A program made the position numbers and the translations under genes. Shown piece by piece: positions 1 to 25,149 of a DNA stretch of 25,367 nt. A model generated the notes under the pieces. The model was not told the origin of the DNA. It saw nothing but the letters and a program-made list of their open reading frames with translations, and made no database searches. The DNA is taken from IMG/VR virus record IMGVR_UViG_2690315922_000022, positions 1-25,367 of that record; one strand, given 5' to 3'. Positions within the stretch are counted from its first letter, which is position 1; every line of letters starts with the position of its first letter. The DNA is from a virus (lineage: Duplodnaviria; Heunggongvirae; Uroviricota; Caudoviricetes).

Positions 1-1158
1 ATGCTCACCGTTAAACAGATTGAAGCGGCAAAGCCGAAAGAGAAACCATACCGACTTGTTGATGGTAATGGTCTGTACCTTTATGTCCCTGTATCCGGAA
101 AAAAGGTCTGGCAGCTTCGCTACAAGATTGACGGTAAAGAGAAAATCCTGACTGTCGGAAAATATCCGCTTATGACTTTGCAGGAGGCAAGGAATAAAGC
201 ATGGACTGCGAGGAAAGACATCTCGGTTGGCATAGATCCGGTAAAGGCGAAAAAGGCTTCGTCTAACAACAATTCTTTTAGTGCAATTTACAAGGAATGG
301 TACGAGCACAAGAAGCAAGTTTGGTCGGTAGGCTATGCAAATGAACTTGCAAAAATGTTTGATGACGACATTTTACCTATCATCGGCAGCCTTGAAATTC
401 AGGATATTGAGCCGATGCAACTTCTTGAAGTAATCCGCAGGTTTGAAGATCGCGGTGCAATGGAGCGAGCCAACAAAGCACGCAGAAGATGCGGCGAGGT
501 TTTCCGTTACGCTATTGTCACCGGAAGGGCTAAATATAACCCAGCACCTGACCTTGCAGACGCCATGAAAGGATACCGCAAGAAGAACTTCCCGTTTCTT
601 CCTGCAGACCAGATCCCGGCATTCAACAAAGCACTGGCAACATTTTCAGGAAGTATCGTATCGCTCATTGCGACCAAAGTTTTACGCTACACAGCCCTAA
701 GAACGAAAGAGCTTCGTTCCATGCTATGGAAGAACGTCGATTTTGAAAACAGGATTATCACCATTGACGCCAGTGTGATGAAGGGACGCAAAATTCATGT
801 GGTTCCTATGTCAGACCAGGTAGTTGAACTTCTCACTACGCTAATCTCAATCACCAAACCAGTATCAGAGTTTGTTTTTGCCGGGCGCAACGATAAGAAG
901 AAGCCAATCTGTGAGAACGCAGTGCTACTTGTGATCAAACAAATCGGATATGAGGGTCTGGAAAGCGGTCACGGATTCAGGCATGAATTCAGCACGATTA
1001 TGAACGAGCACGAATGGCCCGCTGATGCTATTGAAGTGCAACTGGCACATGCCAACGGCGGTTCTGTGCGTGGAATTTACAACCATGCTCAGTATCTCGA
1101 TAAGCGCAGAGAAATGATGCAGTGGTGGGCGGACTGGCTTGATGAAAAGGTGGAGTGA
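1..1158 (+). CDS. int: Phage integrase, P4-type tyrosine recombinase (IntS / Sf6-Int-like); N-terminal arm-binding domain plus C-terminal catalytic domain
   Basis: 385-aa ORF starting at window base 1 (MLTVKQIEAAKPKEKPYRL...); C-terminal GHGFRHEF and RGIYNHAQYLDKR motifs typical of tyrosine recombinases. I recognise it from memory as near-identical to E. coli CPS-53 IntS. A start upstream of the window cannot be excluded. Confidence 0.9.
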   Translation: MLTVKQIEAAKPKEKPYRLVDGNGLYLYVPVSGKKVWQLRYKIDGKEKILTVGKYPLMTLQEARNKAWTARKDISVGIDPVKAKKASSNNNSFSAIYKEWYEHKKQVWSVGYANELAKMFDDDILPIIGSLEIQDIEPMQLLEVIRRFEDRGAMERANKARRRCGEVFRYAIVTGRAKYNPAPDLADAMKGYRKKNFPFLPADQIPAFNKALATFSGSIVSLIATKVLRYTALRTKELRSMLWKNVDFENRIITIDASVMKGRKIHVVPMSDQVVELLTTLISITKPVSEFVFAGRNDKKKPICENAVLLVIKQIGYEGLESGHGFRHEFSTIMNEHEWPADAIEVQLAHANGGSVRGIYNHAQYLDKRREMMQWWADWLDEKVE

Positions 1159-1182
1159 TCCGCCTTAAAAACTATCGAATAG

Positions 1183-1230
1183 CACAAAGCCTTGCAATCC
1201 AGTGAAAAGCTTTGTGTGTATGAGTTTTTT
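1183..1230 (+). terminator. Putative int 3' stem-loop: 8-bp inverted repeat CACAAAGC...GCTTTGTG followed by a T6 run
   Basis: Perfect 8-bp inverted repeat at 1183-1190 / 1209-1216 with an 18-nt loop, then TTTTTT at 1225-1230. Loop length and spacing are non-canonical. Confidence 0.3.
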
Positions 1231-1311
1231 CTCATCAACTACCGCAAGTCATCGATCGATTGAGACTAGGATGATAGACTCCATGCCTTTAATTATTAGC
1301 TGATAGAAGAA

Positions 1312-1674
1312 ATGTTAAAGCTATTTGCAAAGTACACCTCGATTGGTGTGCTAAACACACTTATACACTGGGTGGTTTTTGGTGTCTGTATCTATGCAGC
1401 GCATACAAATCAGGCTCTGGCAAACTTCGCAGGTTTCGTTGTGGCAGTGAGCTTTAGCTTCTTCGCGAATGCAAAATTCACATTCAAAGCATCGGCTACA
1501 ACGATGCGCTACATGTTATATGTCACGTTCATGGGAGCGCTTAGCGCTGCTGTTGGATGGGCTGCTGATAGATGCGCACTTCCCCCAATCATTACTCTTA
1601 TAACCTCCTCCGCCATCAGCCTGGTGTGCGGTTTCGTCTATTCAAGGTTAATTGTCTTTAGGAGTGCGAAATGA
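1312..1674 (+). CDS. gtrA: GtrA, bactoprenol-linked glucose translocase (flippase), small 4-TM membrane protein
   Basis: 120-aa hydrophobic protein immediately downstream of int, overlapping the next gene by 4 nt (ATGA); size and sequence are typical of GtrA in serotype-converting phages. Confidence 0.9.
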
Positions 1675-2594
1675 AGATATCTCTTGTAGTTCCTGTCTTC
1701 AATGAAGAAGAGGCGATACCAATTTTTTATAAAACGGTGCGTGAATTCGAAGAGTTGAAGCCATATGAAGTAGAAATTGTTTTTATAAATGATGGTAGCA
1801 AAGACGCTACTGAGTCAATTATTAATGCTCTGGCTGTTTCAGATCCTCTAGTTATTCCTCTGTCATTTACTCGCAACTTTGGTAAAGAACCAGCATTGTT
1901 TGCAGGGTTAGACCATGCTACTGGAGATGCCGTGATTCCAATTGATGTTGACCTGCAAGACCCGATTGAGGTTATCCCTCATCTTATTGAAAACTGGCAG
2001 GCTGGCGCCGATATGGTGCTGGCAAAGCGTTCAGACCGCTCTACAGATGGGCGTCTGAAGCGCAAGACAGCAGAGTGGTTTTATAAGCTTCACAATAAAA
2101 TCAGCAATCCGAAGATCGAGGAAAATGTTGGCGATTTCCGGCTGATGTCCCGCGATGTAGTGGATAATATTAAGCTTATGCCAGAACGCAATCTTTTCAT
2201 GAAAGGCATTCTTAGTTGGGTTGGTGGGTCTACAGATGTAGTTGAGTATGTCCGTGCTGAGCGGATAGCCGGCAGCACGAAATTCAATGGATGGAAATTA
2301 TGGAACCTAGCACTTGAAGGTATAACAAGTTTCTCCACTTTCCCTCTGCGTATGTGGACTTATATTGGGCTATTCGTAGCTGGAATGGCTCTTTTATATG
2401 GCACATGGATGATTATCGATACCTTGGTGTTTGGGAATCCGGTTCGCGGTTACCCATCACTTATTGTATCCATTCTCTTCTTAGGCGGAATTCAGCTTAT
2501 AGGAATTGGCGTACTTGGTGAATATATAGGAAGAATTTACATAGAGTGCAAAGATAGACCTAGATTTATTATCAAGAGAATGAAAAATGAATAA
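1671..2594 (+). CDS. gtrB: GtrB, bactoprenol glucosyltransferase (GT2 family)
   Basis: 307 aa; N-terminal GT2 signature ([23 protein letters not shown]) and two C-terminal TM helices; coupled to gtrA and to the downstream gene by overlapping stop/start. Confidence 0.92.
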
Positions 2595-4017
2595 AACAAT
2601 TAAAATCAACTTCTACATACTATTTATTATTTTGTTTTTTATTATAACATGTAATATTTACTACTATGATGATGTATTTAGATCGTATTGGGGATATTAT
2701 GGTTGGTCTGAAGATGGAAGGCCTTTTGCAGATTTATTCTATAAATTATTTATTTTCTTTAGATCTGAAAGCATACCAGATATTTACCCACTACCACTAA
2801 TTTTAACGTCTGTGCTTCTTGTTATATCACTAACAAAGGCATTGCAAAATATACTATCAAAAGATGGGGTTATAGTTAATATAACTTTTGCAATATTTAT
2901 GCTTAATCCTTTTCTTTTGTCTAATATGCTATTTAGATATGATGGTGCATTTATGATTTTATCTATTGCACTTTCGGCTATTCCGTTCATTTTTACAAAA
3001 AGTAGAACATTCGCCATATCATCACTACTGTGCCTAACAATATCGCTTGGATTGTATCAGGCCTCAATAAATGTGTATATTGGACTTGCATCAGTAGTGG
3101 TTGCAATGGAAGCATTGAAAGGGGAAAAGTTTACATCTATAGCCAGCAGAGTGCTATTATCTGTTACATGCGTAGTCTCTTCATATGTTATATACTCAAA
3201 ATTAATACTTGAATCATTATCTTTAAATAATAACTTCTCGAAATATGCTCAAATAGTTGAATTAAATAAAGGAGGAGTCATCAATGTTTATGAGAATATA
3301 ATTAACGCAGTTAAAAAAATTGATGTTGCTCTTCATAGTGGTATTGGAACACCTCTTTATATATTTCTATCAATAATAGCCATATCATCTGTGTGTGTTG
3401 CCATTAAACGAAAACAATTTCAGTTACTATTTTTTATTGCTATATCTATTTTAGGTTGTTTCTTTTCTTCTTTTGGTGTGTCTGTCTTTGGGAAATCGCC
3501 AGTATTTGTGTCAAGGATATTTATCGGATTTGGTGTTTTTATAATGGCAGTTCCTTTGATTGGCTCAGCACTTCTTAATTGGAAACTTAATTACTTACTA
3601 TCATTATTCATTGCAATTCCTATGCTGTCCATCTTTTTTGCCACCATTAATGCCTCAAGAGAGGAATTTAAATTCCAAAACAATTTATCACTTCAAATGA
3701 TTAATGATATTAATCATAGCAAAGCTAAATATCTCGACTTTGTTGTTATTGATGGCTATGCGAAGAACTCCTCTGTTGCAAGCATAAATAAGAAAATATT
3801 TCCCGTAATATCTGATATATTGCCTCCTGTCTTTACAAATAGATATGATGGTGGGGTTTTTACATTGATGAGAAATGGACTAAAAGATGTTGTTAGTGCT
3901 GAGTCATCAGCTGCAGACAACGCGGTATCAATATCAGATGACGGAAATCTAATTTCTGACAATAATATATATAGCATTCATGCGACCAAAGATATTATTG
4001 TAATAAAATTAAAATAA
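2587..4017 (+). CDS. Serotype-specific O-antigen glucosyltransferase (GtrC-type polytopic membrane protein); exact specificity not identifiable
   Basis: 476-aa multi-TM protein as third gene of the gtr operon; very AT-rich compared with gtrAB, as is typical of horizontally acquired type-specific gtr genes. Confidence 0.8.
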
Positions 4018-4023
4018 CCCCTA

Positions 4024-4065
4024 GCCCCCCTCCCGCATCAACTCCAGTAATGGCGGGAGAGGGGC
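4024..4065. terminator. GC-rich hairpin between the convergent gtr operon and tailspike gene (probable bidirectional terminator)
   Basis: 13-bp stem GCCCCCCTCCCGC / GCGGGAGAGGGGC (12 of 13 paired) with a 16-nt loop; U-rich tract follows on the minus strand, A-rich on the plus strand. Confidence 0.45.
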
Positions 4066-4084: not shown

Positions 4085-6148
4085 CTAAGAAAAAATCCAA
4101 TTACCATACATTCCAGTTATTTCACTATATGTGCCTTCTTTATTTTTTAATTTAATCCAAGCGCCGAATTCAGTGGTGGCTACTTGCGTTACTTCTGAAG
4201 AGTTACTTACAAACCTTATATTTGCTACACCTATTGCTCTACTTGGTGATGAGATTGTCATAGCTCTTATTATTTTTAACTCTCTGAAATCACCAGTGCT
4301 ACTTGCAATTATATCAATATCATTAGTGCTATGGTTAAATATAATGGTGTTATTTAACAGCTTTGTATTTTGAAAAGATGTTATTGTGGCAATCCCTCCA
4401 ATAAATCCTCTTATCTGGGCCGGGCCAGTATCTCCACTATCATAGGCTAATGATGTGGTTATATTATCTTCCTCCTTTCCTATATGTATATCAATAAAGT
4501 ACTCTTTTAAACTAATACCAGCCAAAACTAAAAATGTTGATATAGTAGATGTACATTTTTTAATAACCAGATTCTTAAAATTTCGAGATAACCCGCTGCT
4601 TATTGGATCAATAGTTCTAGGTAATAATCTGATTATTTTATCCCCACCAGCTATAGTAGTTTCATCAACAATTTCACCTATTTCCACAAAAAGGCGGTCA
4701 TCCCCCAGCATTTCAAAAACACAAAAGTCTAAAGGAGACGTTTTAAATACCACTCTATCAATTAAGATTTTCCCTATACCATTTCCCATAACTCTAGTAG
4801 CTGTCACCCCTCTGTTAGTCACATTCGTTAGTGTTGTATTCCCCGAGATGATTACATCAGCTACAAGACTGTCAGGGAAAATATTAAGTTCCAAACCAGT
4901 ATACGCACCATTGATGTATGGGTTTGAGATTTCACAATTAATCAGCCGAGGGACAGTGTGTCCAGGCACACTTTCGTCTGCCTCTGGTTCAATATCTATG
5001 CCAGATTTCGGCATAGCACCTGTAACACCTCCGTAGTCACCAATATTATAAATCTCAGGATTAACTATTATTATGTTTTCACCTGACGTTAGGCTTATAC
5101 CGTTACGCCTGCATTGTTTGATGATCGGTTTTTCTATATAGATATTTTCTGGGACCGTGCCATCGGTAGTCCCCCACTTCATGCCTATATATATTCCGTC
5201 GCCAAACATGTTGGTATACAGTCCACCAATAATACGAATATTAGAGGATTGAAGTATTGTAAGCCCCCACCCATGTTCTCCTTCGGATGTGTTTGTTAAC
5301 CGATCACCTTCCAGTACAGGATTATAAATATTTACATTTTTAACACCGTTTGCTATGTAAATGATATGGCTTTGTGGCCTGTTTTGATTTGCTAGTTTTA
5401 ATGCCCCATCCTTTTCAAACCTTATAGTGCTATTATCTACGCATCTTAACACAGATTTAAAAGCATCATTTCCAGGTGAAAAAGGGTCTTCATTCACAGC
5501 CATCAAGTTTTCAAATGATTTATCTATAATGAATTCTGCACCAATAGACGCTGCGGATTCATACGCTTTTTGTAGTGTTTGTGCGTCATTGCAAAAATCA
5601 GAAGCATAAATAGAGCTGGTTTTCTTTAATTCAAATATCCTACCGTTTCTGCTCCTGATAATTAATATTCCATCTGGGGTGAGCGTGGGGGTGGATGATT
5701 CATAAACATATCTACCATGAATCATTACATGATTAAATATATCTGGGACATCCTCTTGCTCTATATTAATAGCAACATATATAAGTTTATTACTTAACTC
5801 CCCCCTTAACTGATCAGGGTCATACTTCAGCACATTCTGGAAATAGAACTGCTGTACGCCATACGCATCATAAACAGCCATAGAATGGCCTTGCACGGTT
5901 ACGAACTTGGCAATCTGTCCGTTATATACAGGGTAACCAGCAGCGTTAATGATGATTGGTTGCGATACAGGAACGTGAGAGCCGTCTTCGTTCTCCACAT
6001 AAACCTGAATCTGGTTTTCAGGATTTACCGGGTCAGTATCAATTTTACCGATATAAATTTTGCCATTAGCTACGGCTTTAAAAGAACGCGCCATAGTGAA
6101 GAGTTGCGAAGGCATGCTAACTACAACATTGGCTGTAATGTCTGTCAT
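4085..6148 (-). CDS. Tailspike protein: P22/Sf6-type N-terminal head-binding domain plus divergent right-handed beta-helix receptor-binding domain (probable O-antigen depolymerase)
   Basis: 687 aa; the first ~110 aa ([34 protein letters not shown]...KYDPDQ) match the conserved tailspike N-terminal domain as I recall it; the remainder is AT-rich with beta-helix-like repeats ([22 protein letters not shown]); GGAG RBS 9 nt upstream. Confidence 0.85.
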
Positions 6149-6248: not shown

Positions 6249-7127
6249 TCAGTAGTTATGTACTGAAGGAGGTAATTCTTTATTCTTAAGTCTCATCCAT
6301 GCGGAAAGATTCGTTGGTCCGTCTGGCTCATTAATATCAACATCTCGTGTGTGATTGATTAAAACGTCTCTCGCCATTCCGATAACATACGAGAACTCAT
6401 GACCGTAGTCGTAGCATCTGCCGGAATAGTTCGATTGAATTTGTTTTAGCGCCGGATACAGTTCGCGGAATAATGCCTGTGAGCGGTTAGCATAATCCCA
6501 TAACCATACAAGGCTGTTTGCTTCTTTTGCAGAAAGCTCGTCGGTTTTCTTCTCTTGTTTGCCAATGAACTCGCCTTCAAGCACTACCCTGTGGATGTAC
6601 TCTACGGCCAGCGGGATTTGTTCAATTGAAAGTTCATCAATACTGTCAATACCAAAACGCTGATGAACCATATTGTATGCATCGTCATAGCGAAGTCCTT
6701 TCTTTCCTACCAGCATGTTTACTGCATCGCGTAGCGGTGTTCTTTCCTCAACAGTGGTTTTCTTTCCTTTTACATACTCGCCATGTTTGCGAATTGAAGG
6801 CAGAACTTCTGCTGTTACCCATTTGCGGAATTTGTGCGGGACTGAACCTTTATTGACTGCATCGCGGCAGCGCAGAACCAATGTATACATACCTGATTCG
6901 CTCACAATGCTTAGATTCTGCTCACCACCAAGGGTGTAACTTAAAGTTACTCCCTTTTCATCGTCATCAAGTGCAGTAAGCGCCTTGCGTGAGTTAGTCA
7001 AAGCTAAAGCATCACAAACATCTTTAGCTACAAACCACGGCTCACCGCACTTGTTGATGACGCGGATTTCACTGTCGCCGAATTTGAAGATGGTGAAATC
7101 GTTTTGTGCCTTTGCTATACTTTTCAT
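6249..7127 (-). CDS. ant: Antirepressor Ant (Bro-N / KilA-type N-terminal domain plus ANT C-terminal domain)
   Basis: 292 aa (P22 Ant is about 300 aa); N-terminal [11 protein letters not shown]...[14 protein letters not shown] motif; located immediately downstream of the arc-like gene as in P22 immI. Confidence 0.85.
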
Positions 7128-7199
7128 GTCAATATTTCCTAATCCGATTTGTTGATACCGAAGCCCTGACTGTTACAGCAGTTGGGGCTTCAACTTTTT
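7128..7199 (+). ncRNA. sar: Candidate sar-like antisense RNA covering the ant RBS and arc-ant intergenic region
   Basis: Plus-strand hairpin GAAGCCC (7160-7166) / GGGCTTC (7185-7191) followed by T5 (7195-7199), antisense to the ant leader; no plus-strand gene is upstream. The 5' end is not defined and promoter elements are weak. Confidence 0.3.
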
Positions 7200-7330: not shown

Positions 7331-7440
7331 TTCTTTCCCAATTGCTACACCATGATAACTAAATACTACACCGTGTTTATTTAAAGTCAAAATTTTTTTG
7401 CCTACACTGTGTAGCAATGCTACAGCGTGCAGGAGGAAAA
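7331..7440. promoter_or_regulatory. Divergent Pant / Pmnt promoter-operator region with four CTACAC-type repeats
   Basis: Minus strand: -35 TTGACT (7390-7385), 16-nt spacer, -10 TAGTAT (7368-7363). Palindromes ACACCGTGT (7368-7376) and CTACACTGTGTAG (7402-7414) plus GCTACACC and GCTACAGC copies; AGGAGG RBS sits 4 nt before the mnt ATG. Confidence 0.5.
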
Positions 7441-7689
7441 ATGAAAGGTGCAAGAGATATCAGTCCCTTGGGAATTAGGATTCCAGACTATTTAAAGAAA
7501 CGCATTCAGCAGGAAGCGGATAAAAACGGCAGATCAATGAACTCAGAGATTGTGCTTATCCTTCAAAAACATGTTGATAATCTTGATGGCCCTCGCTCAC
7601 TTGAAGGATTCGCTAACCAAGAAGCTGATAAATTCAAAGAGGCGCTGCTTGAGACGCTGAAAACCATGTATGGCAAGGATGAAAAATGA
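7441..7689 (+). CDS. mnt: Mnt-like ribbon-helix-helix repressor with C-terminal coiled-coil
   Basis: 82 aa from the Met preceded by AGGAGG; N-terminus RDISPLGIRIPDYLKKRIQQEADKNGRSMNSEI is an RHH fold; length matches P22 Mnt (83 aa); divergent from arc-ant. Confidence 0.7.
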   Translation: MKGARDISPLGIRIPDYLKKRIQQEADKNGRSMNSEIVLILQKHVDNLDGPRSLEGFANQEADKFKEALLETLKTMYGKDEK

Positions 7690-7895
7690 ACAAAAAACAG
7701 TTTATTAAGTCAACAACGTCAAGCAAGGAAGAGCTAGAGAAGGAGCTAAACTCCCTGAAATATGCTCTGTGCCTGGTTTACTCAAGACTGCCAATGGAAG
7801 ATAAAAACGCCATTTACAATGAAATGATTAACAGCCTTGATTTTAACGATAGAGACCTAGCATCCCACCTCAACAGCTTCCGCGTCCCTGAGTAA
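7686..7895 (+). CDS. Hypothetical 69-aa protein translationally coupled to mnt
   Basis: ATGA stop/start overlap with mnt; AAGGA RBS; AT-rich; no family recognised. Confidence 0.45.
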   Translation: MNKKQFIKSTTSSKEELEKELNSLKYALCLVYSRLPMEDKNAIYNEMINSLDFNDRDLASHLNSFRVPE

Positions 7896-8055
7896 TTCTA
7901 TTGCGGATTTGCTTCTTACGGTGGTTTAAGCTGGAGAGCTTGGCTTCTGCTTCTGATATTTGCGCATCAAGATCTTTAAGCTCAAGATCTGAAAGTCGCT
8001 GGTCAAGCAGGGTTTGGTTCAACTCAATGTTGTTCAGGCGTTCTTCTATGGTCAT
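7870..8055 (-). CDS. Hypothetical 62-aa coiled-coil protein
   Basis: Internal Met with strong RBS (AAGGAGAAATC-ATG); heptad-like sequence (LNNIELNQTLLDQRLSDLELKDLDAQISEAEAKL); its 3' end overlaps the convergent 69-aa gene by 26 nt. Confidence 0.4.
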   Translation of the reverse strand: MTIEERLNNIELNQTLLDQRLSDLELKDLDAQISEAEAKLSSLNHRKKQIRNRITQGRGSC

Positions 8056-8196
8056 GATTTCTCCTTGTTGAGGTTGATGTGAAACGATTGATTGTATACG
8101 CACTCTTTTGTTAGCTAGTAGCTTTGCTTAATCGCAAGATAAAGTTTCTGATTAATCCCTAAAAATCAAAAAATAAAGTTAAAACAGGTACATGAT

Positions 8197-8400
8197 ATGG
8201 AATGGATCATAGGATTTGTTGTTCTTGTCTTCATAGCCAGTATGTTTAAACCAAGAAGTTGCGATATCTGTGGTGCTGGATTTAAGAAAAAGTACTTCAC
8301 ATGGACTATCGATGGAAAGAAACAGCATCTTTGTCCGTACTGCAACAGTAAAATGGAGAGACGCAACAGCGATAGGCGCTTTAAGGATCGATTTGGTTAA
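8197..8400 (+). CDS. Hypothetical small membrane protein with zinc-ribbon-like C-terminus
   Basis: 67 aa: N-terminal TM helix (WIIGFVVLVFIASMF) followed by CDICG...CPYC, then a basic tail; terminator follows immediately. Confidence 0.5.
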   Translation: MEWIIGFVVLVFIASMFKPRSCDICGAGFKKKYFTWTIDGKKQHLCPYCNSKMERRNSDRRFKDRFG

Positions 8401-8413
8401 CCATTTTATCTCC

Positions 8414-8449
8414 AACAAAAAACCCACCTGACGGTGGGTTTCATTTCTT
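8414..8449. terminator. Bidirectional intrinsic terminator
   Basis: AACCCACC-TGAC-GGTGGGTT hairpin flanked by an A-run upstream and a T-rich tract downstream; lies between the convergent 8197-8400 (+) and 8448-8867 (-) genes. Confidence 0.55.
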
Positions 8450-8867
8450 AATCTTGCTTCGTGGAAGGTATAAGAGATGCATTTGCCTCTTTTGGCTTCA
8501 ATGTATACATCCCACCATTAAATGGATCAACAGCAAGCCAACCAATTAACCCACCAAACACAAGGTTTCCACCAATATACCAACCATTAGCATTGGCTTT
8601 GATTGGCAGGGTAACTGATTCGTACCCATCCTTTTCCATAGTGATCTGGTAGCTCTTTTTGCCAAAATAACTACCATCTGACTTGGCAAGAGTTACTCCT
8701 TGTGGAGTCTTGCCTTGCGCAACAATCACGCCTGATTCATCTTTTACCTTAAAGCTCGCACCGGAAGGGTTGCTGTTCACTTGCACAAGTTGCGTTTCAT
8801 CACCAACAATAGTTGCGCACCCAGATAACATCATAGCGCCAGCAACGACGCCAATAATCCTCTTCAT
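8448..8867 (-). CDS. Outer-membrane lipoprotein with PEGA-like beta-domain and glycine-rich hydrophobic C-terminal motif
   Basis: Signal peptide with lipobox (MKRIIGVVAGAMMLSGC, Ala at +2); mature region VNSNPSGASFKV...GKTP...EKDGYESVT fits the PEGA pattern; C-terminal GGNLVFGGLIGWLAVDPFNGGMY. An alternative start 12 nt upstream (MEIDMKR) is possible. Confidence 0.6.
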   Translation of the reverse strand: MKRIIGVVAGAMMLSGCATIVGDETQLVQVNSNPSGASFKVKDESGVIVAQGKTPQGVTLAKSDGSYFGKKSYQITMEKDGYESVTLPIKANANGWYIGGNLVFGGLIGWLAVDPFNGGMYTLKPKEANASLIPSTKQD

Positions 8868-8988
8868 ATCAATTTCCATATTTAAAAAACCGGAAACATC
8901 CTAATGACAAACCATTCAAATGTGAAGTAGGCAAAAGATGTTTACTTTTTTCATGATATCCTGTGAAAAACTAAGGAGAGTTAACCAT

Positions 8989-9474
8989 ATGAAAAAATCA
9001 CTGTTAATTATCCCGCTTCTGCTGGTTGGATGCGCAAAAGTAAGTGACTATCAAGCAAGTTGCGAACAACGCTATCACAAGCTTAGCGATATGGCTAATT
9101 GCCTTGATGCCAGTGTGAAGAACGACTCACGCATGGCATCAGCACCAACACCTAAGTTGTATGTCCTTGCTGCAAAGATGCTCGGGCAAGGTGTCGATGA
9201 AGGCAAGATAAGTGACGCACAGGCAAGGCTTGAGCTTCAGAATCTTTATGTTCAATTACAAAGCCAAGAACAAGCCCAACAAATAGCACAAAGCCAAGCA
9301 TTCCAGCAGGCTTTATTGAATTATCAGGCTGTAAACACAATGCAAGCGATCGAGCAAAAAGCGAGACAGCCTGTTATAACTCAACCCTATCCAACACGCG
9401 TTGACACTTACACAAACTGCAATTCAGGGTTTGGAAATACAGTCACATGCAACAGTAGCAGTAACATAAGATAA
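8989..9474 (+). CDS. Lipoprotein with Gln-rich coiled-coil region, function unknown
   Basis: Start at the internal Met preceded by AAGGAGAG RBS; lipobox signal MKKSLLIIPLLLVGC (Ala at +2); several Cys and a Q-rich helical segment; divergently transcribed from the neighbouring lipoprotein. Confidence 0.6.
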   Translation: MKKSLLIIPLLLVGCAKVSDYQASCEQRYHKLSDMANCLDASVKNDSRMASAPTPKLYVLAAKMLGQGVDEGKISDAQARLELQNLYVQLQSQEQAQQIAQSQAFQQALLNYQAVNTMQAIEQKARQPVITQPYPTRVDTYTNCNSGFGNTVTCNSSSNIR

Positions 9475-9564: not shown

Positions 9565-11562
9565 CTATTCTGACAACGCATCAGACTTGGCACCCTGAGT
9601 AATGGCGTTAATGGCCTTTTGCGCCTGCTGCATAGCTTTCTCAAACGCTGTTGATCCGCGTGGGGTATTTGCCATTCGGAGCATTGCATTTCTGAATGGC
9701 TCGCTCTCATAGGCGCGAGTAAGAAGTCCGTAGCTTACCGCTGCGCCAGTTGTCGCCGGGTTCATTGCCGTCCCATACCCGATAATGAACGGGATGGTTT
9801 GCTGCCCTGTTGGTGTTGTTACTGCTGCTTTTGCAGCCTGCTGCGTGGATTGCAGGTAGTTTTTCAATCCTTTCAGATAAGCGGCTTCCTGACCTTTAAA
9901 TGTGATGCCAGTCTGGTTTTGCAGGATGTTAAGCTGCCGAAGGAACTGGTCAGGGGATCCGCCAGATTTCTCCATCGCCTTTCCAATGATGCCATTGCGC
10001 ATTTGCGCCCTGCCAACACGACCAACTGAGTTATACAGCGTCTTAATTTCCGATTTGTTCTTGCTGAATAGCATGTTGTTGACAACTTCCGGCGTCAGGT
10101 CGCCTTTCATGAGAACATTCTTCAGCCTGGTATTCTTTAGTTTCGCCGCTTCGTCAGCGTAGACGGCATTGGCCTGCTGATATTTACGGAGAGTATCGTT
10201 GCCAAGATTCTGACCAATGGCACCATTGATATCGTCTGTCATTGCCTTGTAAACGCGCTGAATGGCAGCATCGGAACGGTTTGGTAACACTGGTCGTTCC
10301 CCCTTCACGTCCATTCTGAACTGGCTGCGCAGATCGCTTAATTGCTTCAAATCCAGATTTACCGGACCATCAGGACTAGCATTGCGAATAAGCTCATCAC
10401 GATAGGATTGAAGTTTTGAAATCGTCTCGTTATCAGCGACCTTACCAAGCTTCTGCAGGTTAGATATCTCAGTATCAATCTGCTGAATTGCTCGCACAGG
10501 CTGAATGTTTACTCCAGCCATAGCATTCTGAACCTGCTCCAGTCGATTACCGGCAGCACGACGAATTCCTGATGTTTTCGCTTTAAGGCTGTCAATAACA
10601 ACTGCCGGATCGTACTCGCCGAATTTATCAGCAAATCTCTGCACCAACTGGCTTCTCGCTTCCTGTTGCGTTGCTCTCATTCCGCTTGTGCCAGCCAGAG
10701 GGATATTTTCTGCTGTAGTCTGCGCCATTTTTCCGACGCGGGAAGTTGGTTGTAACAGGTCTGTGGTGTGCAGAGGAACTCCTTCACGCTCTGCAAATCT
10801 GATAGCCTGTTGCGCTTCTGGTGCGATAGCACCACGAACGCCACGATAAGCAGCACCTAATCCACGTCCGGCAGCGTTAATAGCACCGCCAGCCAGCACA
10901 CCAACGCCTAAATCGGTGGCGAGTGCTTCCGCATCATCTTTCGCACTGTTTGCAGCAAGTGATCCAACTGCGTTTTCTGCGAGAAGGCGAGTTGCCCCCT
11001 GAGCAATTCGACCAGCAAGTGTTGGTGCCTGTGTTGCCGCTCTCTCAACGCCAGCAGGAGTGAGGTAAGGCAATGCTTCAGCAAACACCCTGCCCTCTGT
11101 CGTTTGTGGAGTCAGCGCGCCTTGCTGAAGGCCAAAGTCCTGCTCTAATCCCTGCGTTGTTACTCGTGGCGCTGGTTGATATGTACCATCGCCAATGCCG
11201 AGTTTACCGCCAGCCCATGCAGCCGCACTTGTTACAGCATCGGCAACTGATGCAGGTATGTTTGCCACGTTCACGCCAGCCTGCACCAGTCCGCGACCAG
11301 TCTCTTTTACTGCTTCGCCAAGATCAGACATAAATCCACTTTGCTGTGGTTGTTGCTGTGCTACTGGTTGCTGTGTCTCCACTTGCTGCACAGATGGCAA
11401 TGGATAGGCAGCATAGAAAGCTTGCTTAGCCTGCTCTGCATTTTCTCCGGCTTGCGGGGCCACGACTTCATTGAAGTATTGCTCCTGAGCCTGCGCTTTT
11501 TGTTCTGGTGCTAACGCCTGATACTGTGGAGAGGCGATAACATCTTTCCATGCTTTAGCCAT
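9565..11562 (-). CDS. Ejection (E) protein, P22 gp16-like
   Basis: 665 aa, Ala/Gln/Gly-rich; position and composition match P22 gene 16; start overlaps the gp20 stop by 1 nt (TAATG). Confidence 0.8.
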   Translation of the reverse strand: MAKAWKDVIASPQYQALAPEQKAQAQEQYFNEVVAPQAGENAEQAKQAFYAAYPLPSVQQVETQQPVAQQQPQQSGFMSDLGEAVKETGRGLVQAGVNVANIPASVADAVTSAAAWAGGKLGIGDGTYQPAPRVTTQGLEQDFGLQQGALTPQTTEGRVFAEALPYLTPAGVERAATQAPTLAGRIAQGATRLLAENAVGSLAANSAKDDAEALATDLGVGVLAGGAINAAGRGLGAAYRGVRGAIAPEAQQAIRFAEREGVPLHTTDLLQPTSRVGKMAQTTAENIPLAGTSGMRATQQEARSQLVQRFADKFGEYDPAVVIDSLKAKTSGIRRAAGNRLEQVQNAMAGVNIQPVRAIQQIDTEISNLQKLGKVADNETISKLQSYRDELIRNASPDGPVNLDLKQLSDLRSQFRMDVKGERPVLPNRSDAAIQRVYKAMTDDINGAIGQNLGNDTLRKYQQANAVYADEAAKLKNTRLKNVLMKGDLTPEVVNNMLFSKNKSEIKTLYNSVGRVGRAQMRNGIIGKAMEKSGGSPDQFLRQLNILQNQTGITFKGQEAAYLKGLKNYLQSTQQAAKAAVTTPTGQQTIPFIIGYGTAMNPATTGAAVSYGLLTRAYESEPFRNAMLRMANTPRGSTAFEKAMQQAQKAINAITQGAKSDALSE

Positions 11563-12857
11563 TAATCACCCCATAGTGAAGAAAAGTTACTGCCAGTAGT
11601 AGATTGTTGCCCTGGCATATTCTGCACCGGCTCCTGATAATCAAACTGTTTTTTAACAGTGCTCAACTTGCTTTCAAGCTGATTTCTAATCTTTCCGATA
11701 GAGTCACGAAAAGCCTTTTCACTCATTTTGGGGCTTAGGGCACCAACCGCATCGGATAATTTTTTACCCTCAGCATCTGAAAGAGCGCCCATACCCTTCA
11801 GGGACTGCACCATAGGAAGGAATGTTTGAGCTTTAAAGGTGTCGAGCCTTGCTTCAAAGTTAGCCGCATCAGAGCCAGGAACTGTCGGAAACGCTGAGCG
11901 AATTCCTACTGCTTTTGAAAGGCCGGGGCTTTGCTCTATCTCGTTGAGAGAATCAAGCGCGGTGCTGAACGTATCAACTGCACCCTGAGCGGCGGCCTGC
12001 CTGTCAGCGCGGGCTATGTCAGCCTTTTGCCGAACATCTGCCTGTTTCTGTTTTAGCTCTTCAAGCTTTAACTGATTGCTTTCTCTGGCTATCTGTCTGT
12101 CCAGAGCCTTTTCTTGTAATTCTGCTCTTTGTATTTCGCGGGAAAGAGCAGCATTCTGTGCGCTGATGTTCTGTCCACGTATCTGGATGTCCTGACCACG
12201 CGCTGTTAGTGCTTCTCCAGCCTGATTGCTGCGGATTGTCTCTGCCAGCCTACCTCGGTCAATCTCACGACCAGCCATCTTGTCCTGAACATTGAAGTAG
12301 TCAATCGGACCGAGAGCAGCCATCCCAAGGTGATCAACAAACTCACCAAATCCTGAAGGATTCTGCTGATACATCTGAGCAACGTTATTAGGGTCAACAC
12401 CGACGCTAGTCAGTTCCTTGGCGTTGTTTTGCAGCCATGATTGCATTGCTTCTGGAGACGATGCCGCAAGACGAGCGCCAGCCGCTAAGGTGCCGATAGA
12501 ATTGCGCTGGTCTTCATCAATGAATCCCATGCCTTTACGAACGGATTCAATCTGGTCCGGATATTGAGTAGCCAACTGACGCAAAGCACCGCGATCACCA
12601 GACGCATAAGCATTAGCGTATGCCTGCTGAAATTCTTTCTGCCGCTGAGCCTGCTTTTCCTGCTGAAACACCCCCGCAATACCTGAAAGGCCTTGCAAAG
12701 CAGTCAGCCCAACATTGTTAGCGCCGGAACGCTCAATATCATTGTTCTGCCTGATAAGCTGAAGCGTATTGCCGATGTCATTTACGCTAGGAGCGTTTGA
12801 GTTGACGCCACCGATACCAGCCAACAATCCGCCATTTGATCCTTGCCAAGTAGCCAT
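11562..12857 (-). CDS. Ejection (E) protein, P22 gp20-like
   Basis: 431 aa; N-terminus MATWQGSNGGLLAGIGG... typical of gp20-type injection proteins; conserved order 7-20-16. Confidence 0.8.
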   Translation of the reverse strand: MATWQGSNGGLLAGIGGVNSNAPSVNDIGNTLQLIRQNNDIERSGANNVGLTALQGLSGIAGVFQQEKQAQRQKEFQQAYANAYASGDRGALRQLATQYPDQIESVRKGMGFIDEDQRNSIGTLAAGARLAASSPEAMQSWLQNNAKELTSVGVDPNNVAQMYQQNPSGFGEFVDHLGMAALGPIDYFNVQDKMAGREIDRGRLAETIRSNQAGEALTARGQDIQIRGQNISAQNAALSREIQRAELQEKALDRQIARESNQLKLEELKQKQADVRQKADIARADRQAAAQGAVDTFSTALDSLNEIEQSPGLSKAVGIRSAFPTVPGSDAANFEARLDTFKAQTFLPMVQSLKGMGALSDAEGKKLSDAVGALSPKMSEKAFRDSIGKIRNQLESKLSTVKKQFDYQEPVQNMPGQQSTTGSNFSSLWGD

Positions 12858-12866
12858 GATGACCCC

Positions 12867-13562
12867 TTAAAACAACGAGCCAAGCAGGCCAAGCCCGCCA
12901 CCAATTGCGGCGCCTAATCCAGTACCAAGTCCGGGGACAATAGAGCCAAGAGCGGCCCCAGTCATAGCTCCTGAAGCTCCTCCGCTAATTGCTGTCTGAA
13001 GACCTGATGGCTTATTGGCATTAGCAGCGGCGAGAGCTGCGCTTTGCTGTGCAATGCTGCTCATGTTGTTGGCGTATGTCTGCCCGGCGTTCGCCTGACC
13101 TTGCAACGCACCAAGGCCAATGTTTGCCAGATTGTTGTAGTTGCTCATCTGGTTTGATAACCACGACTGACCGAGAGTCGGCGCAATCGTAGCCAGTTGA
13201 TTGCTTGTGGCTGTCGATCCAAGTCCACCCGTTGCCTCCGCTGCAGCAAGACTCTGGTAACGCGCCTGACCTGCAAGGTCTTTATACTGCTGAGAGTTGT
13301 AATACTGATTAAGTGCCTGCCCCTGTCCTTCTAAACTGGAAAGATTCTGAAGCTGGTTAACATACTGCTCCGCAAGCGGCGTGAACGGAGCAAGGTTTTT
13401 CATGATCGTCTGCCACTGCTGATTTTGCAGGTCTGCGGCATACTTCTGAGCTTCTGCTGCATACTTTGCGCTTTTATCAGAGCTGCCACCTTTCCCGCCT
13501 TTTTCAGGGCAATAAGGTTCCTCGCCGCGCAGTTTTCTGCCCAGCTTAAATGCATATAACAT
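12867..13562 (-). CDS. Ejection (E) protein, P22 gp7-like
   Basis: 231 aa (P22 gp7 is 229 aa); N-terminus MLYAFKLGRKLRGEEP...EKGGKGGSS and glycine-rich C-terminus GAAIGGGLGLLGSLF match gp7 as I recall it. Confidence 0.85.
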   Translation of the reverse strand: MLYAFKLGRKLRGEEPYCPEKGGKGGSSDKSAKYAAEAQKYAADLQNQQWQTIMKNLAPFTPLAEQYVNQLQNLSSLEGQGQALNQYYNSQQYKDLAGQARYQSLAAAEATGGLGSTATSNQLATIAPTLGQSWLSNQMSNYNNLANIGLGALQGQANAGQTYANNMSSIAQQSAALAAANANKPSGLQTAISGGASGAMTGAALGSIVPGLGTGLGAAIGGGLGLLGSLF

Positions 13563-24711: not shown

Positions 24712-25149
24712 TTATTTCAGGCACTGAGTCCTGATGTACTCCTGCAGGTAGTTAACCTGCGCGGTTATCCTGTCGATTCCACTTCGGAGACGGTAATAAT
24801 TGAGTTCAGCATCTGCTGTAAGTCCTGGGCTTTCTCCATCGCCCATGCTGCTGGCTCCGGTCGTTGACTTTGCACAGGTGGCGGCGACTTGCAGGCGCTT
24901 ACGACCAGCAGAAACATCAGCCCGGAGACTTTCGATAGTCGCGTTAGCATCAGCAAGCTCCTTTGTATATCTGGCGTCGAGTTCTGCTACATCACGTTGA
25001 CGCTTCTGCATGTCAGCGATTGTGGATGCGGCCTTATCGCGCTGCTCTTTGTAGGTCATGGCGTTATCACGGTAATGATTAACCGCCCATGACAGACAGA
25101 CGATGATGCAGATAACCAGAGCGGAGATAATCGCGGTTACTCTGCTCAT
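24712..25149 (-). CDS. Rz: Rz i-spanin (lambda-type)
   Basis: 145 aa; [30 protein letters not shown] matches the lambda Rz N-terminus as I recall it; N-terminal TM plus periplasmic coiled-coil. Confidence 0.9.
24765..24956 (-). CDS. Rz1: Rz1 o-spanin lipoprotein, embedded in Rz in the +1 frame
   Basis: 63-aa ORF wholly inside Rz; lipobox LLVVSAC followed by a proline-rich segment, as in lambda Rz1. Confidence 0.8.

Follow-up and report, generated by a model that had tools for sequence, protein, structure and literature searches.

The gene at positions 8989-9474 of a 25,367-nucleotide stretch of caudoviral DNA (IMG/VR record IMGVR_UViG_2690315922_000022, positions 1 to 25,367; the whole stretch is called "the window" below) is a functional plus-strand gene that encodes a prolipoprotein of 161 amino acids, the coordinates including the stop codon. 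The DNA belongs to a P22-like (Lederbergvirus) prophage, of which the window is the right-hand part, with the segment int-gtrABC-tailspike-immI-ejection genes. The gene has the position and orientation of P22 sieA: it lies between the homologues of gene 16 and gene 9, on the strand of mnt. Its place in the sieA slot makes it reasonable to suspect a function in exclusion, and the product is a candidate blocker of phage entry. Of the roles considered, that of an entry-exclusion factor which is expressed from the prophage and acts in the periplasm or at the outer membrane seems the likeliest, and we propose it tentatively. The type of element, a prophage moron lipoprotein in the ant moron of P22, is already known. 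The family is uncharacterised and has no curated domain model, and its predicted fold has no match.

Coding region

The ATG codon occupies positions 8989-8991 and the last base of the stop codon is 9474. An earlier note, made from the letters of the DNA, had delimited the reading frame exactly. The gene is further supported by a full-length match to PHROG 6067 (residues 1-161 on profile positions 1-161, E = 2.7e-110), a family annotated as being of unknown function, and by RNA sequencing of an orthologue. It is under strong purifying selection: the ratio of nonsynonymous to synonymous substitution rates (dN/dS) is 0.03-0.07 for five orthologues from phages and E. coli prophages, with dS of up to 0.6 and dN of at most 0.023.

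The product starts MKKSLLIIPLLLVGC. A longer in-frame open reading frame (ORF) is possible from 8938. The start was assigned to 8989 because the homology between loci collapses 5' of this position and because all relatives begin with MKK. The Shine-Dalgarno sequence AAGGAG at 8974-8979 (plus strand), 9 nucleotides 5' of the ATG, is conserved, as is the gene, in VSe13, E. coli 20.1, 720R6 and Gally. At 8954..8962 on the plus strand the sequence TGATATCCT may be an extended -10 element of a promoter of the gene's own. A consensus promoter scan found no plus-strand promoter and did not report this putative element. The block TCATGATATCCTGTGAAAAACTAAGGAG accompanies the gene in E. coli 20.1 and, in an altered form, in VSe13. 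The hexamer TGTTTA at 8938-8943 was considered as a PhoP box, a reading that was dropped on account of its wrong spacing to the putative -10 element and of a spacer that is not conserved in Gally.

Predicted structure of the lipoprotein

The first 15 codons (8989..9033, plus strand) encode the signal peptide, residues 1-14, and the cysteine predicted to be lipid-modified, Cys15. The lipoprotein signal, which the earlier note had recognised, consists of M-K-K, the hydrophobic core SLLIIPLLL and the lipobox L12-V13-G14-C15, and is kept in the family: 128 of the 137 aligned members have Cys in the lipobox column and 127 have a lipobox-like motif. The target has no hydrophobic segment after the signal peptide. 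The residue at position +2 is Ala; in the 127 lipobox-bearing relatives it is A, T, S, V, L, G or one of several others, and never D. According to the Lol sorting rule of Enterobacterales, lipoproteins without Asp at +2 go to the outer membrane. Since the +2 residue is Ala and not Asp, the protein is expected to be sorted there.

The target has cysteines at residues 15, 25, 38, 144 and 154. C25 (codon 9061-9063) and C38 (codon 9100-9102) are invariant (137/137), and the C-terminal pair, C144 (codon 9418-9420) and C154 (codon 9448-9450) in the target, is found in 101 of the 137 members. The earlier note had already described paired cysteines. As the conserved pairs belong to an exported protein, they probably form disulfides in the periplasm.

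The conserved N-terminal helical domain comprises residues 16-100 (9034..9288, plus strand), as judged by the alignments and by the helices of the AlphaFold2 model. Its near-invariant residues are Q22, Y58, L65 and A79. The predicted helices span residues 18-28, 32-45, 47-51 and 53-70, followed by one that runs from residue 76 onward, with a predicted local distance difference test score (pLDDT) of 93-98. This last helix is a single long one, residues 76-125 (pLDDT ~95), and includes the Gln-rich stretch. Its Gln/Ala-rich continuation (residues 90-125; 9256..9363, plus strand) is a linker expanded specifically in the subfamily, and there are 14 glutamines among residues 84-125. The segment had been described as a Gln-rich coiled coil. 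The Gln-rich helix is present, but the coiled coil is ruled out: there is no heptad periodicity, the enrichment of hydrophobic residues at heptad positions a and d being not above that of shuffled sequences. The segment should rather be read as a long Gln/Ala-rich helical spacer.

The helix is followed by a Pro-rich hinge, residues 126-139 (RQPVITQPYPTRVD; 9364..9405, plus strand), which has no regular secondary structure and a lower pLDDT. The chain ends with a C-terminal β-hairpin, residues 140-158 (9406..9462, plus strand), whose strands are formed by residues 140-146 and 152-158 of the model. The hairpin motif T-x-C-x3-G-N-x-V-x-C-x-S is conserved through the superfamily described below.

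The model has a pLDDT of 89 and a predicted template modelling score (pTM) of 0.63 when computed with the 137-sequence alignment, and a pLDDT of 64 when computed with 29 sequences. The pLDDT-89 model has no fold match in the PDB or BFVD. No relative of solved structure was found by sequence either, the top match being WTAP (E = 0.21).

Position in the prophage genome

In P22 the gene order is gene 16, sieA (with its own promoter), orf59a, mnt, arc, ant and gene 9, and sieA is on the same strand as mnt and converges on gene 16. The region between the tailspike gene and gene 16 has been called the "ant moron" of epsilon34 and is a site of high gene flux (PMC2629481). Its GC content is 0.41-0.44, compared with 0.51 in the virion genes. 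The same slot holds sieA in P22 and an hkcB-like gene in epsilon34. Between the same flanking genes the target is present in some related phages and absent from others, and it is a moron in this sense.

The resemblance to P22 SieA concerns the locus, expression and size. Both genes sit between mnt and gene 16 and converge on the latter; both are expressed from the prophage, either from a promoter of their own (putative in the target) or by reading from mnt; both are confined to P22-like prophages of Enterobacterales; and the products have 164 and 161 residues, respectively. However, no alignment with P22 SieA was obtained for the target by BLASTP at E <= 100, and the FxRYPxEAxxFNK motif is absent from the target. 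Homology to P22 SieA was therefore rejected.

The junction with gene 16 is constant. The target adjoins a gene-16 homologue in 77 of 80 IMG/VR loci, which are all those with the flank present, the other three being cut off. The gene-16 homologues at these 77 loci are of at least three sequence types (37, 24 and 16 loci), and the gap between the stop codons of the two genes is 14-91 bp at the 61 IMG/VR loci where it is measurable. The same junction occurs in eight other loci, for example in phages or prophages of Salmonella, Proteus, Yersinia and Morganella. Together the surveyed loci (80 viral contigs and eight others) represent six genera. The other side is variable, 234 to 3385 bp separating the tailspike gene from the target. 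The most frequent order is tailspike gene, mnt-like gene, target and gene 16. The target is often operonic with mnt, which is expressed in the lysogen, or lies directly 3' of it, and has an operon-like position after mnt in E. coli O104:H4 and in Proteus phage Brookers. In prophages of Yersinia ruckeri and Morganella no other gene separates the tailspike gene from gene 16. P22-type sieA is absent from all target loci examined, the 80 in IMG/VR as well as the others. Within Enterobacterales the close family is found only in P22-like prophages, always beside gene 16.

Family and superfamily

Pfam, NCBIfam and PADLOC have no accepted model for the protein, and PHROG 6067 is its only family assignment, in agreement with the earlier note, which recognised no family. 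A Pfam scan of the 137 aligned relatives gave no recurrent family except the lipid-attachment-site model. No profile or sequence match was obtained with Bor, Iss, TraT, Cor or Llp. The only NCBIfam match, to GspK, scored 18.8 bits where the cut-off is 130. It is an artefact of low complexity and the source of one spurious "GspK" label in GenBank; the other relatives are named "hypothetical protein" or "lipoprotein" in the databases. No mention of the accession numbers and locus tags of the gene was found in the literature.

The relatives form 94 clusters at 90% identity, all from Enterobacterales (Escherichia, Citrobacter, Serratia, Cronobacter, Klebsiella, Pectobacterium, Yersinia, Morganella, Providencia and Tatumella). 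Of 5426 complete E. coli genomes, 182 carry the gene itself, among them O104:H4 and the adherent-invasive E. coli (AIEC) strain LF82; it also occurs in Salmonella, Serratia, Klebsiella, Yersinia, Morganella and Proteus.

An exhaustive profile search that covered 1.84 billion representatives placed the family in a superfamily of 247 clusters (50% identity) at E <= 1e-3, 95 of which were found at E <= 1e-10. The remote homology search suggested by the earlier note thus led to a superfamily without a name, but not to a named family or a known fold; the members that were inspected have neither an informative name nor any Pfam domain. Most members are lipoproteins of 125-140 residues that share with the target the head domain and the C-terminal hairpin, here T-x-C-x3-G-x4-C. 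They differ from it in their linker, which is short and not Gln-rich, and in that some of them occur outside phages. The median length of the linker that joins head and hairpin is 55 residues with 22% Gln in the close subfamily, versus 30 residues with 7% Gln in the wider family, showing that the Gln-rich stretch is not a feature of the family as a whole.

A narrower alignment for the wider family yielded three genomic loci and none in IMG/VR. The distant relatives (30-40% identity) belong to Burkholderiales, Desulfatitalea and other metagenomic genomes, and their surroundings are diverse. At one locus (L015) the gene converges on an ejection gene with an SLT domain, beside an Inj_translocase gene. 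At another (L014) it lies among genes for a polyvalent protein, a small terminase and MmeI restriction-modification. The remaining ones are situated in an integrase island (L096-L098), in a region rich in toxin-antitoxin genes (L099-L100) and in a housekeeping-like chromosomal context (L101).

Expression in the prophage Gally

Gally, a prophage of E. coli LF82, is the only phage with expression data for an orthologue of the target. It carries the same gene pair as the window (locus L008, 3534-4573): GALLYPH_13 (LF82_138) is the orthologue of the target, to which it is 97.5% identical, and GALLYPH_14 (LF82_139) is that of the adjacent gene for a lipoprotein with a PEGA-like domain. The values of fragments per kilobase per million mapped reads (FPKM) given here were recalculated from the log2(FPKM+5) values in Table S1 of PMC9928086 and describe Gally, not the strain of the window. 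LF82_138 has 65 FPKM in overnight culture in lysogeny broth (LB), 253 and 273 after 1 h and 6 h in Dulbecco's modified Eagle's medium (DMEM), and 1251 and 388 after 1 h and 6 h in macrophages. With respect to LB, this is an increase of 4-fold in DMEM and of ~19-fold in macrophages at 1 h. The values for LF82_139 in the same order are 40, 1023, 1314, 2064 and 692. Under these five conditions gene 16 remains at 7-13 FPKM and the c2 repressor gene is at 680-4035 FPKM. Transcription of the target orthologue in the resident prophage thus does not depend on the late operon.

Gally was described as "devoid of morons", a gene having to exceed the local background 5-fold in LB to be counted (PMC9928086). 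The two lipoprotein genes were missed because in LB they are 4.5-fold (LF82_138) and 3.3-fold (LF82_139) above local background and thus fell below this threshold. In DMEM and macrophages they are ~16- to 130-fold above it. The authors also noted a 6- to 40-fold induction of the five rightmost Gally genes in macrophages (PMC9928086).

Such a response would equally be expected of a lysogenic-conversion factor that serves the host, namely an outer-membrane lipoprotein of the Bor/Iss kind that is switched on in host-like conditions and alters the envelope, for instance with respect to stress, serum or antimicrobial-peptide resistance, or adhesion. Bor itself was induced in DMEM in the LF82 study (PMC9928086) and, like the target, Bor and Iss are lipoprotein morons, in their case of lambdoid prophages, expressed in lysogens. 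The presence of pathogenic lineages (AIEC LF82, O104:H4 and large genomes of the size of Shiga toxin-producing E. coli, STEC) among the carriers, the chromosomal superfamily members outside phages, which suggest a general envelope function, and the strong purifying selection with no arms-race signature, as would fit a conserved host target, are also in line with a function of this kind. Nevertheless, deletion of the whole of Gally, which lysogenises the deleted strain at 1e-4 to 3e-4, left the survival of LF82 in THP-1 macrophages unchanged (PMC9928086), and a CRISPR interference (CRISPRi) screen of LF82 in the gut in vivo highlighted other Gally genes, LF82_138 not being mentioned in its text (10.64898/2026.01.05.697630). 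Bor and Iss are proteins of ~97 residues associated with serum resistance, and the target resembles neither their models nor that of TraT. Moreover, the close family is confined to P22-like prophages, beside gene 16, whereas bor-type morons occur in other phage types. Host conversion is the main rival of entry exclusion but seems to us rather unlikely. Should it be correct, the induction in macrophages would make the gene a candidate for a prophage contribution to the biology of AIEC and STEC.

The target converges on gene 16, and no intrinsic terminator is recognisable 3' of the target before gene 16 (z = 0.24). On its way to the tailspike gene the late transcript thus has to cross the target in antisense, and convergent transcription might modulate late read-through into that gene. 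An alternative role in the lytic cycle would be to keep progeny from ejecting their DNA into the debris of lysed cells, the second function that has been proposed for Llp of T5. The ant moron affects tailspike expression in P22 according to the epsilon34 paper (PMC2629481). Either role is improbable. The gene is highly transcribed where the late genes are silent, and the dN/dS of 0.03-0.07, the conserved cysteines and the lipobox indicate that it is the protein that matters and not transcription alone. In addition, P22-like virions already carry receptor-destroying tailspikes.

Proposed role in phage entry

If the protein excludes phages at entry, as we tentatively suggest, its action may be pictured as follows. 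Processing at Cys15 by Lgt, LspA and Lnt would give a mature protein of 147 residues, which Lol would sort to the outer membrane, facing the periplasm. There the compact helical head would be locked by the C25-C38 disulfide. It would be followed by the helix of ~50 residues, spanning ~7 nm if fully helical, whose Gln-rich distal half would serve as a spacer, and, after the Pro-rich hinge, by the small β-hairpin closed by the C144-C154 disulfide. Superinfecting phages, most likely P22-like ones, would be blocked before delivery of their DNA is completed, possibly by disturbance of the trans-envelope conduit formed by gp7, gp20 and gp16, or possibly by occupation of a host envelope component that the conduit needs. 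The protein would then correspond in function, though not by homology, to SieA of the inner membrane and would act in the manner of the lipoproteins Cor, Llp and Ltp.

Cor of phi80, N15 and T1 and Llp of T5 are small phage-encoded outer-membrane lipoproteins that block further phage entry. Llp, which contains a disulfide, works at the outer membrane from its periplasmic face. The target is not homologous to these proteins, is two to three times larger and is mostly helical; also, Cor and Llp act on FhuA against siphoviruses. Ltp of Streptococcus thermophilus phage TP-J34 is a prophage-expressed lipoprotein that blocks DNA injection by way of a virion protein of the entry channel (PMC10883804), but it functions in a Gram-positive host and is unrelated to the target in sequence and fold. 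SieA, which exists as types A, B and C, crosses the inner membrane with 3-4 transmembrane segments, carries a cytoplasmic FxRYPxEAxxFNK motif and obstructs the gp16/gp20 conduit from that membrane (PMC10883804). The target, in contrast, has a lipobox signal peptide with no hydrophobic segment after it, and its model shows a helical head that is soluble, and a hairpin.

Several observations weigh against entry exclusion. There is no signature of an arms race: the gene is under strong purifying selection and is nearly identical across prophages that have different gene-16 types. The rise of expression in DMEM and macrophages fits host adaptation equally well. Competition for a single slot is by itself sufficient to account for the lack of co-occurrence with sieA. 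The target matches no PADLOC model, and the non-phage surroundings of superfamily relatives indicate that the fold may have a general role in the envelope. Finally, a depletion of double carriers, considered as a signature of exclusion, was set aside as having no statistical power, since 3 of 186 E. coli genomes carry two copies where ~6 would be expected under independence (Poisson P = 0.12).

A more specific proposal, which we regard as doubtful, is that the protein represents a structurally new lipoprotein family. P22-like prophages would have taken it from an envelope family that is widespread in bacteria, and the sieA locus would thereby have gained a second solution, not homologous to the first. 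From the outer membrane or the periplasm the protein would act against the trans-envelope ejectosome of podophages and block it, the Gln-rich stalk determining how far the disulfide-locked hairpin reaches. Induction in macrophages would then mean that lysogens raise a barrier to phage entry, or remodel their envelope, inside the host.

SieA is carried by only 22 of 66 P22-like phages, so that two thirds of the sequenced ones are without it (PMC10883804), and the target is one of the commoner occupants of the slot in E. coli. If exclusion is confirmed, the protein would offer a handle on the assembly of the gp7/gp20/gp16 conduit from the periplasmic side and would be relevant to host-range prediction and to phage therapy against carrier lineages. 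Whether its role is in exclusion or in host adaptation, the target anchors a lipoprotein superfamily of at least 247 clusters that has no Pfam entry and whose predicted fold is confident and without match.

The neighbouring PEGA-like lipoprotein gene

A gene for a PEGA-like lipoprotein of the epsilon34 gp15 type (8448-8867, minus strand; PHROG 6823) is divergent from the target, from which it is separated by an AT-rich spacer of 121 bp with 31% GC (8868..8988). This arrangement is as the earlier note had described it. The PEGA match is below the Pfam cut-off (16.1 versus 20.8 bits), and the protein has a Gly-rich hydrophobic stretch at its C-terminal end. The Cor family PHROG 1119 matched just the signal peptide of this protein, and not the target. 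A promoter-like site for the PEGA gene is found on the minus strand at 8926-8898.

The earlier note suggested that the two envelope proteins are co-regulated and proposed to test whether both genes are needed. On this model they would form a two-protein system that is expressed from one divergent promoter region and requires both proteins. The divergent arrangement in the window, the lipoprotein nature of both products and the joint rise of their orthologues in DMEM and macrophages (r = 0.87 over the five conditions) would agree with this. The correlation of LF82_138 with c2 is, however, 0.98 (n = 5), and mnt and the tailspike gene rise too, so that the response is regional or lysogenic; co-regulation in Gally is partly supported but not specific to the pair. 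The shared promoter is doubtful: the consensus-like promoter hexamers in the spacer are no commoner than in shuffled sequence and the spacer itself is not conserved in Gally and 720R6. The PEGA gene is present in 123 of 5426 complete E. coli genomes, and the two genes are adjacent in just 24 of the 182 that carry the target and in 9 of 80 IMG/VR loci. Each gene is also found alone, the target in phage VSe13 and the PEGA gene in epsilon34. The rare adjacency and the separate occurrences show that the genes are not an obligate pair, a model that is already largely refuted, and a two-protein system is very improbable. The target and the PEGA gene are independent morons, which stand back to back in the window by chance.

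Organization of the remainder of the window

The integrase gene (1-1158) is followed by a gtrA/gtrB/gtrC-type O-antigen glucosylation cassette (gtrABC, 1312-4017). With these genes (1-4017) the prophage already has one superinfection barrier, which modifies the cell surface. The tailspike gene (4085-6148, minus strand) encodes a P22 head-binding domain. The immI region consists of ant (6249-7127, minus strand), the sar antisense RNA (7129-7195, plus strand; Rfam RF00262, 69.4 bits, E = 1.1e-13) with its terminator hairpin at 7160-7191, arc and mnt (7417-7689, plus strand). The presence of sar, mnt, arc and ant shows that this P22-type region is complete. No known RNA was found in the spacer between the target and the PEGA gene, sar being the sole RNA family match.

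Three small ORFs between mnt and the PEGA gene (7686-8400) are missing from most related prophages. The first encodes 69 residues, overlaps the mnt stop codon and belongs to PHROG 16466 (7686-7895, plus strand). The second, of 61 or 77 residues, is coiled-coil-like and belongs to PHROG 7586 (7870-8103, minus strand). The product of the third (8197-8400, plus strand) has 67 residues, with an N-terminal hydrophobic segment and a C4 zinc ribbon. They are followed by a strong bidirectional hairpin terminator at 8420-8441 (-16.2 kcal/mol, z = -4.0), which terminates plus-strand transcripts from the mnt side as well as the minus-strand PEGA gene.

A spanin or other lysis role for the target was ruled out, the prophage having its own Rz gene (24712-25149) and the target lying outside the lysis cassette. 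The ejection-protein genes 16, 20 and 7 occupy 9565-13562 on the minus strand. Beyond them lies the remainder of the virion module, which extends to the terminase and Rz genes. The gene next to the target encodes the gene-16-type ejection ("DNA transfer") protein (9565..11562, minus strand; PHROG 770, E = 1.8e-238). Residues 163-384 of this protein match a PHROG annotated "transglycosylase" (E = 7e-32), and the equivalent protein beside the distant relative at L015 (1762-4422) contains an SLT domain (Pfam, E = 9e-26). The lipoprotein might conceivably inhibit such an enzyme, as Sp of T4 inhibits the gp5 lysozyme.

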